Shown here: in pieces, positions 29,888 through 32,584 of the stretch | Layout: every line of letters starts with the position of its first letter | Position numbering within the stretch: the stretch's first letter is position 1 | Translations under genes and position numbers: made by a program | Sequence record: PQ666539 | Strand: one strand, 5' to 3' | DNA: 64,000 bases | Source of the DNA: Shigella phage sb1 | Notes under the pieces: model-generated | Told to the model about the DNA's origin: nothing | The model's database searches: none | Seen by the model: the letters and a program-made list of their open reading frames with translations, nothing else

Positions 29888-32584
29888 TCAGCCAAACAGG
29901 AAGTCTAACGAAGCTTTTTCTTCATAGTCCATACCCGCCGATTCACACATGCCCGCAAGTGGTTTAACAAACGATTTTTGGAACAAAGTTGAGTAGTCAA
30001 TCCAAGACAGCACGTCAGAACGAATTTATTTTGGAAGTTCCGTACCCGATGGCCAAGCAATGCACTTGTCACCAAATGGATTTCCTTCACGTAATGGAAG
30101 AACCATTACCTTATTTCCATCCAAAATTGGAGCTACACCTAAACCGCTAACAGCTCGACGATAAGTTAGCACACCACGAATATGGAACGGACATTTAAAT
30201 CCTGGCCAACCTTTATCATCATATTTCGCTATATCGTTCGCAGTTTTTACTTCAGAAATAACTTTATAGTCAAGTTGACGATATTCTTTCTCAAAGTTCT
30301 TGTAGTATTCTTGGACAGACTCTTCACCTTCCTGAAGAATACGACGAATACTTTCTTCGAGAGCTTCTTGCACTGCTTTTGGTGTTGAACTCTGCTGAGT
30401 TTCCATACCCATGATTTTTAGATGTGGTTCAGCAAATCGCTTATCTTCCATATCATAAACGTTAAGAGCATAACGTTTTTTCGCTTTCCAAAATCCACCA
30501 ACACCCTTTGAACCAAGCGGAGGACAAGAAATAGCTTCACGGTCCATATGCATCAGATGCTCGCGGTTATTCATATAATCACATAACTCACGATATGCAA
30601 CATCAATCATAGGTTCCATCTTTTTCTTACCAAACTGATTCATGAATTCAACTAAATCATTTTGTTCTTTAAAGCGATCAAGACCTACTTTTTCAATTAC
30701 TTTATCTACGCAAACATATACCGAATCAGTATCACCTGCTGCGATGAAATCTTCACCATTAGTTCCACATACTTTATTCAGATATTCATTAATTTTGCGA
30801 GCAATCCACTGAATACCGACTTGACCGAAAATTGTGATAGCAGTAGCATTTCGCAAATCATAGTAGCGGAAATGAATATTACCAAGAGCACCATAAAGAC
30901 TGTTAATAAGAATTTTACGGTTCAGCTGATTTGTGTTAGCAAGTGTAGCAGCTTTTTCACATTCTTCAATCAGACTATTAAGAACAGATTCGGTGTAATT
31001 CGATAATTCGTTTAAGAAATCATCATTGAACTTAACATATCGTTCAACTTCCGGTTTAGTTGAGCAAGACCCTGCACCTTACATAATAATCTTTTTAATA
31101 GCTTCGGCATTCATTTCTTCAGCGAACATTTTCTTTTTCCAATCTTTACGCTGGAAAAATACTTTAGCGATTTCCTTTGGAATGATACCTTCTTGATGCT
31201 TATCATACATCCATCCATTCGGAGAACAAGAATATTCATCACTTGGCTTAGGAGCTGTTCCTGCGATATATTCATGAATTGGATGAACTTTAAATTGCCC
31301 GCGAATAGTCTCAGGACTAATGTTAACCTGACGAATAATGCTAGGATACAGAGACGTCAAGTCAAAACTCATAATGTATCGACGAGCAATCGGTTTAGGT
31401 TCAAATACAAATGCACCTGGAAAACTCTGTTTAACGTGCGAACCTTGTTGAGGAATAACCTTATGTTCACCTTTCAGTGAGTTAAAAATAATAGCATCCC
31501 AAGTTTTAATAGGACTCATTACACCAGAAAAAGGCATTTTAGCGTAATAAGACATACTTAAAACTAGATCGATAAACCCACGAATTTTATCAATTGCTTG
31601 AACTGATTCTACGTCAATGATGTTATAACTAATGTATCGTTGATGATTAGTCTCACGAAGTTTATTAATAGGACCATCGTACGGCAATTTACCTTTTTTG
31701 GTTTCATGTTGAGCAACTGATTCCAAAGAGAACGATGGCAAATTAGTAAATGCGAATTTCTTATAAAAATCTAAATAATCAAGAATAGACACGCCATCAA
31801 TAGAATAAATTTCTTTACTACCGTACATATTTTGAATTAGTTTAGATTTTACTCTACCGATTGGAGAGAAGCGTTTCATACTACGTTCACCGAGAACCAT
31901 TTTAACGCGATTCATGATATACGGAACGTCAAATCCCTCAATATTCCAACCAGTAAAAATAGCAGGTCGTTTCTGTTCCCAGAGATTAATATATTCCATG
32001 AGCATATCACGCTCATTATCGAATGGCATATAAATTACTCGGTCAAGAATTTCTTGAGGAACTTCATCACCACCTTCACAGTCAAGCTTAGCAGCTAACT
32101 TTGCATCCCATTTTGATACTGAACCGTACATTGAATTCAACAAATCAAAGACGTAAAAACGATCATCAATTGAATCATAATGAGTGATAGCATCAATTTC
32201 ATATTCTGCTTTCATTGGGTCAGGAAATTTATCACCAGTAACCTCAATGTCACAGTTAGCTACACGAACAAATTTTCGGTCATAAACAATTTCTGAACCA
32301 TATGTATCACTTATATAAGCGAGTTTAAAATCGTTCATACCGAGAGCTTCGAGACCAATGTCTTCCATTCGTTTCATCCAGTCTCGTGCATCTTTCATTG
32401 ATGGAAATTTTTGAGGAGCACAATTTTTACCATAAATGTCTTTGTATTTTGACTCTTCCTTACAATGCCTAAACATAGTAGGAAGATATTCTACTTCACG
32501 AGTACGTTCCTTTCCATTTTCATCAATATAGCGCTCAACAATGTTATTTCCGACTGTTTCGATAGAGATATAAAATTCTTTCAT
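29888..32584 (-). CDS. 43: DNA polymerase gp43 (family B), interrupted by two in-frame stops
   Basis: 899 codons equals T4 gp43 (898 aa); N-terminal 501-aa piece matches recalled T4 gp43; TAA at 31079-31081 and 30026-30028. Confidence 0.95.

Follow-up and report, generated by a model that had tools for sequence, protein, structure and literature searches.

Nonsense mutants of T4 gene 43, which encodes the DNA polymerase gp43, are classical tools, and established T4 genetics ranks genes 41, 42, 43 and 46 as essential. Splits of family B polymerases, both natural and engineered, are tolerated in the fingers/fingertip region (PMC2988022, PMC3061061), and bicistronic 43A/43B genes are ascribed to Aeromonas phages 25, 31, 44RR and 65 and to Acinetobacter phage 133 in the passages of these two papers that cite Petrov et al. 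(2006, 2010). In RB69 the fingers domain comprises residues 472-571, and the PIP-box tail binds the clamp (PMC3012046). C>A/G>T changes are known as the signature of 8-oxoG damage arising in library preparation, which is strongest at CCG (Costello et al. 2013, PMC3616734). Here we consider gene 43 in a stretch of 64,000 nucleotides of Shigella phage sb1 (PQ666539; the whole stretch is called the window below), where two in-frame TAA codons interrupt the polymerase. In all likelihood these stops belong to an unselected layer of damage or error lying on an ordinary T4-like genome rather than reflecting recoding, a suppressor mutant or a split of biological origin.

Gene 43 and its two stops

Gene 43 lies on the minus strand, which the first-pass annotation had left unstated. 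Translation of that strand gives 898 sense positions with the natural TGA at the end and exactly two internal stops, and the ORF finder likewise returns three collinear pieces in one frame, as that annotation had it (Table 1). The bases read ATT ATT ATG TAA GGT GCA around codon 502 and CCA AAA TAA ATT CGT around codon 853. The identity of the gene is unambiguous, its top match being Tequatrovirus gene 43 at 98.6% nucleotide identity; gene 43 of phage Killian differs at 33 nucleotides with zero indels, and that of T4 at 100 nucleotides. The assignment to the family B polymerases is borne out by Pfam matches of the first piece to DNA_pol_B_exo1 (PF03104, E=2.8e-21) and DNA_pol_B (PF00136, E=1.7e-15) and by motifs A (DLTSLYPS at 408), B (KILINSLYG at 557) and C (GDTDS at 617), which occur in this order ahead of the C-terminal clamp-binding tail, SLDFLFG at residue 892. 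Because the PF00136 match resumes in the second piece (profile positions 18-144, then 141-237), the first stop divides a single domain.

The gene had been described as a single interrupted one rather than three genuine genes, and this reading stands: there is no indel relative to Killian, only two point nonsense changes separate the pieces, and in alignment the gene is unbroken in eight of eight relatives, where codon 502 is AAA (Lys), codon 853 is GAA (Glu) and internal stops are absent, so that neither site is a genuine gene boundary. It had also been called an otherwise intact 898-aa polymerase. This is correct in that reverting the private changes restores an uninterrupted protein of that length, but it overlooks two missense transversions of the same kind, L273F and A777S. 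A private synonymous change is found in the gene as well, at 31064.

Both stops are truly present in the sequence as supplied, and found nowhere else, because the bases are read directly and the relatives and GenBank records carry sense codons. Across about 496 GenBank Tequatrovirus records, either 71-mer spanning a stop was always mismatched at the stop itself. An ancestral GAA at codon 502, by which K502* would become a G>T change, is ruled out, as none of the GenBank Tequatrovirus records scanned has GAA there. Exact-pattern scans of GTDB genomes, JGI metagenomes and GenBank phages found neither stop, nor did any match come from RefSeq E. coli genomes or PLSDB plasmids. The stops were not matched in IMG/VR by exact pattern either; control patterns with N wildcards came back equally empty there and are uninformative, and the synonymous change at 31064 falls within the first IMG/VR search pattern. 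Exact-protein look-ups found none of three altered products of the window on record, while unaltered ORFs of the window do occur there.

Table 1. Gene 43, its open reading frames and the private changes of the window (positions count from the first base of the window).
Feature	Position	Strand	Remarks
Gene 43 (gp43, family B DNA polymerase)	29888..32584	-	898 codons + TGA terminator; two internal TAA
TAA codon 502, Lys>stop (K502*)	31079-31081	-	AAA>TAA, coding-strand A>T; fingers domain
TAA codon 853, Glu>stop (E853*)	30026-30028	-	GAA>TAA, coding-strand G>T
ORF piece 1	31079..32584	-	501 aa, ORF finder
ORF piece 2	30026..30856	-	276 aa, starts at internal TTG
ORF piece 3	29888..30013	-	41 aa, starts at internal GTG
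gp43 A777S missense	30256	-	GCT>TCT, G>T, same change class as E853*
gp43 L273F missense	31766	-	TTG>TTT vs Killian and UGKSEcP2; coding nt 819
Private G:C>T:A transversions	1..64000		271 (161 C>A + 110 G>T, + strand); 31/32 two-kb bins
TAA for Glu, gene 52 (topoisomerase medium subunit)	481..483	-	residue 345/442
TGA for Gly, gene 52	1357..1359	-	residue 53
TAA for Glu, denB (endonuclease IV)	4137..4139	-	
TAA for Ser, rIIA	7176..7178	-	T4 coordinate 1346
TAA for Glu, rIIA	7185..7187	-	
TAA for Glu, rIIA	7998..8000	-	residue 8
TAA for Glu, 39.2	10918..10920	-	T4 5767
TAA for Glu, goF	11355..11357	-	T4 6210
TAA for Glu, 86-aa hypothetical gene, dexA.2–dda interval	14653..14655	-	
Private 1-base deletion (C), dda frameshifted	15097		
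TAA for Glu, dda helicase	15516..15518	-	T4 10030
TAA for Glu, modB	18099..18101	-	T4 12620
TAA for Ser, modB	18498..18500	-	
TAA for Ser, srh	19575..19577	-	T4 14096
TAA for Glu, 61.1	23059..23061	-	T4 19115
TAG for Glu, gene 41 (replicative helicase, essential)	25375..25377	-	T4 21688
TAA for Ser, gene 42 (dCMP hydroxymethylase, essential)	28407..28409	-	T4 25715
TAA for Ser, rpbA	35667..35669	-	T4 32979
TAA for Tyr, gene 46 (recombination nuclease subunit, essential)	36676..36678	-	T4 33988
TAA for Glu, nrdH	43924..43926	-	penultimate residue
TAA for Ser, nrdG	44917..44919	-	T4 42809
TAA for Glu, nrdD	45399..45401	-	T4 43912
Private 1-base deletion (C), frameshift in 129-aa hypothetical gene	48607		Killian 58769-59158
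TAA for Glu, nrdC.6	53188..53190	-	T4 52497
TAA for Glu, nrdC.7	53753..53755	-	
TAA for Glu, nrdC.8	54294..54296	-	
TAA, nrdC.10	55819..55821	-	adjoins 1-base deletion at 55824
Private 1-base deletion (T), nrdC.11 frameshifted	56450		
TAA for Glu, 173-aa hypothetical gene	57911..57913	-	
TGA for Gly, vs (valyl-tRNA synthetase modifier)	63250..63252	-	T4 61706

The position of codon 502, which by RB69 numbering (472-571) falls within the fingers domain, would fit a natural division of gp43 into separately translated subunits at the fingertip, similar to 43A/43B of Aeromonas phages 25 and 44RR, whose break is likewise placed in the fingers domain by the passages that describe it (PMC2988022, PMC3061061). 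The second stop, however, sits in another part of the protein, the thumb or tail, and E853* cuts off 45 C-terminal residues, the clamp-binding PIP-box tail among them. Moreover, as portrayed in the same passages, the 43A/43B phages have sequence between the two cistrons or a homing-endonuclease insertion, and their 43B has its own start, whereas in the window a single base change breaks the frame, the break has no intercistronic sequence, mobile-element insertion or indel, and the length of the gene equals that of its unsplit relatives. The next in-frame ATG, GTG or TTG after the first stop is codon 577, and a restart there would therefore lose motif B, with the second truncation still to come downstream. 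Since the sense codons of the eight relatives and the roughly 496 GenBank records also speak against an inherited split, we give this explanation practically no credence.

Stops and frameshifts throughout the window

Treating the stops as a peculiarity of gene 43, as the first-pass annotation did, proved untenable. Across the window there are 29 in-frame premature stops in 24 genes, plus four frameshifted genes, while three relatives scanned in the same manner have 0, 2 and 2 stops; only matches of at least 70% identity were considered, which keeps out paralogue HSPs (modA vs modB) and low-identity matches. The essential genes 41, 42, 43 and 46 are among those carrying stops. TAA makes up 26 of the 29, with TGA and TAG also arising in frame, and the residues replaced are Glu, Ser, Gly, Tyr, Lys and Val (five to six kinds). 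Most private indels lie outside homopolymers, and their count falls inside the range spanned by the control genomes.

This distribution bears directly on the possibility that we are dealing with a laboratory strain carrying ochre conditional-lethal mutations in gene 43 and maintained on a suppressor host. Each of the two gp43 stops arises from a single-base change to TAA, which resembles the single-base nonsense lesions of T4 gene 43 amber/ochre mutants, and K502* is the sole new stop in the private set to fall outside the dominant G:C>T:A class. However, the genome of a T4 gene 43 nonsense strain is intact apart from a single engineered or selected lesion, whereas here 27 more stops of all three kinds affect 23 other genes and missense changes are not depleted. 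TAA, TAG and TGA at Glu, Ser, Gly, Tyr and Lys are beyond any single suppressor, and the background is not that of T4, as the 100 differences in gene 43 make clear. There are no tRNA genes in the 64-kb window (the T4 tRNA cluster falls outside it). A suppressor strain thus seems to us very improbable.

The prevalence of TAA among the new stops could also be taken to mean that TAA has been reassigned, or is read through in a programmed manner, as an amino acid. Its share is nevertheless that which G:C>T:A changes would produce on this codon usage (71% expected, 85% observed, p=0.19), the in-frame stops align with several amino acids in the relatives and not with one, and the standard code is in use in these relatives, which are 97-98% identical. 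Recoding is already refuted by terminator usage, given that conserved genes end in TAA 53 times, in TGA 40 times and in TAG 7 times and TAA is thus still the commonest normal terminator; what probability remains for it is negligible.

An unselected layer of G:C>T:A changes

Private changes were defined as those seen only in the window when it is compared with four relatives (Killian, Ec_YwIITB1, UGKSEcP2 and T4). The 271 G:C>T:A transversions compare with 5-103 in these controls, where T4 accounts for the 103 and the three closer relatives have 5-27; counted separately, C>A and G>T amount to 18 and 9 in Killian, 11 and 15 in Ec_YwIITB1, 3 and 2 in UGKSEcP2, and 53 and 50 in T4. About 1.4% of the G:C sites of the window are affected. 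All other classes, transitions included, are at control levels, and A:T>T:A shows no excess (37 in the window, 33 in Killian).

The coding effect of the layer is that of changes blind to selection: 26 nonsense, 197 missense and 30 synonymous changes are observed against an unselected expectation of 30.7, 200.2 and 22.1 (p=0.17). Transitions in the same genes, by contrast, comprise 256 synonymous, 96 missense and 0 nonsense changes against 117, 227 and 8 expected (p=2e-54), which makes 73% of them synonymous, and the controls show no unselected layer. An excess of further unselected classes, which would account for K502*, was considered and set aside: as raw ratios, missense to synonymous changes are slightly above the controls, at 20:7 for A:T>C:G and 96:256 for transitions. 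The G:C>T:A layer shows strand symmetry (p=0.39), and its density is overdispersed along the window (p=0.002). Context dependence is weak, with CCG the highest of 16 contexts at 2.28% (p=0.026, uncorrected for the 16 contexts). C>A and G>T interleave randomly at every distance, without strand coordination even within 100 bp, and damage to a single strand or single molecule is rejected on this ground. Nanopore or homopolymer-type error is likewise rejected as the main cause, in view of the weak context dependence, the location of the indels mostly outside homopolymers and an indel count in the control range.

Because GAA, TCA, GGA, GAG and TAC are each one G:C>T:A change away from a stop and the genome is AT-rich, such a layer generates about thirty premature stops. 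E853* is shown to be one of its products. For gene 43, the window-wide G:C>T:A rate predicts about 1.65 new stops, and what is observed is one of the dominant class and one other. Two observations count against the error layer: the G:C>T:A load of the gene is below the window average (4 vs 13.4 expected, p=0.003), and the density of the layer is uneven. The simplest view of K502* is that the same non-biological process also produced it, as an event of a minor class; we infer this by association only, since A>T belongs to a class without excess. A lesser and very improbable alternative is that K502* alone is a genuine nonsense mutation, placed at the fingertip where gp43 tolerates a split.

A deposited relative, Shigella phage sb2 (GenBank PQ666540.1), matches the window collinearly over bases 1 to 50,000 and has the same gene layout. 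Its gp43 carries E197* and E203*, both through GAA>TAA, and for this reason is annotated as two CDSs. In 50 kb, sb2 has six in-frame stops, five of them Glu>stop, and 49 private G:C>T:A changes; its layer is about five times weaker than that of the window and occupies other sites, and the two sequences are about 1,000 transitions apart over this length. Only 11 of the 233 G:C>T:A changes in the first 50 kb of the window are common to sb2, while the shared private changes total 102 and are mostly transitions. This low sharing suggests that the layer is recent. The same signature at different sites in sb2 points to method rather than biology.

Origin of the layer and comparison with known systems

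We propose that the underlying phage would be an ordinary Tequatrovirus segment, in which gene 43 would encode a normal single family B polymerase of 898 codons, and that about 250 G:C-to-T:A transversions, blind to coding, would have been overlaid on natural, selection-filtered divergence; a few of the single-base deletions may share this origin. The layer is most likely technical, arising perhaps from 8-oxoG pairing with A or from an equivalent base-calling or consensus error, which may have become fixed in the consensus if depth was low, template molecules few or polishing poor. Subsequent corruption of the sequence would give an identical picture. A phage bearing exactly this sequence would be incapable of replication, and the stops are therefore uninformative on how the polymerase is made.

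A genuine G:C-to-T:A hypermutation of a non-replicating genome would share the oxidised-guanine spectrum and could accommodate the uneven density of the layer, the changes then being the true bases of the sampled molecule; from sequence alone, lesion-derived mutations look the same as read or consensus errors. Candidate sources would be heavy oxidation of the phage DNA in particles or cells, a host response that oxidises guanine, a mutator background or the decay of a copy that had lost its function. Yet a lineage with 29 stops, some in four essential replication genes, could not propagate, so that all changes would need to have been fixed in one step in a single molecule, and the lacking strand coordination of G>T and C>A is contrary to single-strand damage on one molecule. 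Host DNA is absent from the 64 kb, synteny with T4 is perfect, and an independent record, sb2, has the same signature elsewhere in its sequence. We therefore consider hypermutation improbable, if somewhat less so than the suppressor strain, and its more specific form, a massive in vivo G-specific lesion (from a host response or particle ageing, for example) copied once before sequencing, very improbable indeed. If the layer were real, it would be a record of the lethal mutagenesis of a phage.

The chief value of these findings is that of a quality flag on the sequence. Read literally, it would lead to the annotation of a "split" polymerase and of two dozen pseudogenes or fragment ORFs that are not real, and might prompt an erroneous claim of stop-codon recoding. 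An error or damage layer can be told from real evolution without reads by collecting the private changes of a sequence with respect to several relatives, dividing them into mutation classes and setting the synonymous, missense and nonsense counts of each class against those expected in the absence of selection. Since sb2 displays the same signature, T-even genomes riddled with G:C>T:A may recur in public databases, adding spurious protein fragments.

With the 8-oxoG artefact (PMC3616734), the window shares an excess limited to C>A/G>T and disregard of selection; CCG is nominally the most affected context here too. The artefact, however, is characterized by low allele fraction and read-orientation bias, whereas the changes in the window are known from the consensus alone and show a weak context preference; its low allele fraction thus calls for an extra assumption, namely that coverage was very low, that templates were few or that the consensus step was at fault. 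As for T4 gp43 and its Tequatrovirus counterparts, TAA 502, TAA 853, L273F and A777S have no equivalent in any relative. In all other respects compared, the window gene conforms to this type: it has 898 codons, is located between regA and imm.1, is 96-98.8% identical to its relatives at the nucleotide level, and presents both Pfam domains, exonuclease and polymerase, together with the three motifs A, B and C in the same collinear order.

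Two in-frame stops in gene 43

The first-pass annotation had described gene 43, encoding the family B DNA polymerase gp43, as divided by two internal TAA codons into three same-frame pieces, and the translation, the bases and the ORF listing all bear this out. The listed pieces are 501, 276 and 41 aa long, the second opening at an internal TTG and the third at an internal GTG. By Pfam, the first holds the family B exonuclease domain as well as the beginning of DNA_pol_B, which runs on into the second (profile positions 18-144, then 141-237); stop 1 thus cuts within a single domain. 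Relative to Killian, the gene has no indels and 33 nucleotide differences, 29 of them synonymous, the other four being L273F, K502* (stop 1), A777S and E853* (stop 2), all to T on the coding strand. All eight relatives have AAA at codon 502, GAA at codon 853 and no internal stop, and GAA at codon 502 occurs in none of the relatives among GenBank Tequatrovirus records. Neither stop was found in IMG/VR, GTDB genomes, JGI metagenomes or GenBank phages. In a large assembly collection, three altered window proteins have no exact record, two unaltered window ORFs are recorded, and all four neighbourhoods returned carry gene 43 as one 898-aa product.

The window is otherwise an ordinary T4-like genome, collinear throughout with Killian and further T4-like genomes; its gene 43 region has matches in 710 phage records, almost all of them Tequatrovirus (best identity 98.6%, none identical). 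In T4, the topoisomerase region is arranged as gene 39, mobA and gene 60 with a 50-nt translational bypass, an arrangement missing from the window, and nrdD has the I-TevII intron, whereas the window's nrdD is unbroken. Such homing-endonuclease and intron absences are ordinary mobile-element variation among T-even phages. A 68-bp stretch with a second match in Killian suggests a short repeated intergenic element. The window's nrdC.3-like protein of 309 aa is encoded without change on metagenomic scaffold_6271 (ENA ERZ28645661), which shows that environmental data contain close relatives of the phage.

Positions of features in the window or, where named, in other records
Feature	Position	Strand	Remarks
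Gene 43, family B DNA polymerase	29888-32584	minus	one frame: 898 sense positions, TGA terminator, two internal TAA
Stop 1, TAA, codon 502	31079-31081	minus	context ATT ATT ATG TAA GGT
Stop 2, TAA, codon 853	30026-30028	minus	context CCA AAA TAA ATT
sb2 gene 43	29880-32576 (sb2 record)		annotated as two CDSs
Private single-base indels, frameshifting	15097, 48607, 55824, 56450
Other private single-base indels	10439, 11084, 12790, 17343, 38857
G:C>T:A-free stretches	49134-51370, 57913-60347, 30464-31855		460-640 comparable G:C sites
About twice mean G:C>T:A density	10001-14000, 44001-46000
Topoisomerase II large subunit	8290-10107	minus	single 605-aa ORF, likewise in Killian, UGKSEcP2, Ec_YwIITB1, sb2
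nrdD	45027-46841
Three Killian homing-endonuclease genes without window counterpart	29501-30151, 48176-48799, 56495-57316 (Killian)		window junctions about 21620, 39135 and 46800-46840
258-bp CDS between gene 43 and imm.1	38500-38745 (Killian)		also in UGKSEcP2; absent at window 29683-29706 and in T4, Ec_YwIITB1
68-bp stretch	3226-3292		distant match in Killian, 64925-64991, 94% identity
Match to scaffold_6271	49258-51254		1997 bp, 98.4% DNA identity

An unselected layer of G:C>T:A changes

The stops are not, as had been supposed, a feature of gene 43. When reference proteins were mapped onto the window and paralogue and low-identity hits removed, 29 in-frame stops appeared in 24 genes and four genes were split between frames; the identical scan gave 0 stops in UGKSEcP2, 2 in Ec_YwIITB1 and 2 in T4. 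Named via T4 coordinates and annotation tables, the affected genes include 41, 42, 43 (twice) and 46, which established T4 genetics places among the essential replication and recombination genes, and further 52 (twice), denB, rIIA (three times), 39.2, goF, dda, modB (twice), srh, 61.1, rpbA, vs, nrdH, nrdG, nrdD, nrdC.6, nrdC.7, nrdC.8 and nrdC.10. Isolated private single-base indels number nine (eight deletions, mostly not in homopolymers), within the control genomes' range of 3-21; they frameshift dda, a 129-aa hypothetical gene, nrdC.10 and nrdC.11, that is four genes against 0, 1 and 2 in controls.

A change counted as private when the focal genome departed from a base shared by three or all four references. 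The window has 161 private C>A and 110 private G>T changes, as compared with 18 and 9 in Killian, 11 and 15 in Ec_YwIITB1, 3 and 2 in UGKSEcP2, and 53 and 50 in T4, while its transitions are at an ordinary level. The excess, about 1.4% of comparable G:C sites, is found in 31 of 32 two-kb bins and is strand-symmetric (p=0.39). Trinucleotide context has a weak effect (0.4-2.3%, heterogeneity p=0.012, CCG highest), and density varies moderately along the window (0-18 changes per 2 kb, chi-square p=0.002), which could reflect local sequencing depth.

Selection separates these changes from the transitions. The G:C>T:A class comprises 26 nonsense, 197 missense and 30 synonymous changes, where 30.7, 200.2 and 22.1 are expected without selection (p=0.17); for transitions the counts are 0, 96 and 256, against 8, 227 and 117 expected (p=2e-54). 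The window therefore consists of two layers: ordinary divergence that purifying selection has filtered, and G:C>T:A changes that never went through selection, a layer absent in every control genome. The new stops arose from GAA>TAA (16), TCA>TAA (5), GAG>TAG (2), GGA>TGA (2) and TAC>TAA (1). Stop-codon recoding is excluded, as the TAA share (85%) fits the 71% expected from G:C>T:A on the window's codon usage (p=0.19) and all three stops still terminate conserved genes normally (TAA 53, TGA 40, TAG 7).

Gene 43 is relatively spared by this layer (4 changes observed, 13.4 expected); at the window-wide rate its 121 stop-capable G:C sites would yield 1.65 new stops. E853* (G>T), A777S and two synonymous changes are typical members, and L273F is probably another. 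K502* (AAA>TAA) is an A>T change, the sole private nonsense change outside the G:C>T:A class, and A:T>T:A changes show no excess in the window; we infer that it is a minor error type of the same non-biological process.

Recency and origin of the layer

The record of the relative Shigella phage sb2 (PQ666540.1) begins at the same base as the window, and the two are collinear over bases 1 to 50,000. Their 102 shared private changes, mostly transitions, point to a common ancestor. Of the window's 233 G:C>T:A changes in this first 50 kb, just 11 are also in sb2, so that the layer postdates separation of the lineages and belongs to the window record alone. Over the same 50 kb, 49 private G:C>T:A changes and six in-frame stops occur in sb2. 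The stops, five of them from Glu, fall in genes including 52, 56 and 43; gp43 of sb2 is annotated in two parts owing to GAA>TAA at codons 197 and 203, with missense changes of the G>T and C>A types alongside. sb2 thus shows the window's defect in milder form, and that an independent deposit carries this signature at other sites speaks for a technical cause.

C>A/G>T is the signature of 8-oxoguanine pairing with adenine, known as a library-preparation artefact with CCG preference, read-orientation bias and low allele fraction (PMC3616734). The class restriction and lack of selection fit this source, and the CCG preference fits weakly; however, the artefact is of low allele fraction whereas the window's changes stand in a consensus, which would additionally presuppose shallow depth, a small number of template molecules or an error in the consensus step. 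The same pattern would also follow from an error of two-colour sequencing chemistry, in which a stray signal in one channel would turn C into A and G into T, or from subsequent corruption of the sequence. Real oxidative hypermutation in vivo, of a dead genome, is much less likely, given the layer's uniqueness and recency and the lack of strand coordination among G:C>T:A changes, even at <100 bp.

Both TAA codons are truly present in the window, yet they are not peculiar to the polymerase gene: E853* is demonstrably a hit of the unselected layer, and we infer the same for K502*. In practice this is a quality warning, and comparing each class of private change with its expectation under no selection offers a read-free test for such corruption.

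Comparison with natural polymerase splits

The split gp43 of the window is judged not to be a real biological feature. Past stop 1, no ATG, GTG or TTG occurs in frame before codon 577; motif B (KILINSLYG, at 557) lies upstream of that codon and would thus be untranslatable, and motifs A (408) and C (617) would sit on separate fragments. Motif B bears the dNTP-binding residues of the fingers domain, 472-571 in RB69 (PMC3012046). Stop 2 cuts 45 residues off the C-terminus, among them the PIP-box tail by which the polymerase docks on the gp45 clamp (PMC3012046). The natural 43A/43B splits of Aeromonas and Acinetobacter T4 relatives are located in the fingertip (PMC2988022, PMC3061061). In these arrangements an intercistronic sequence or homing-endonuclease insertion separates the halves, and translation of 43B begins at a start of its own (PMC2988022, PMC3061061); gene 43 of the window is interrupted with neither feature.
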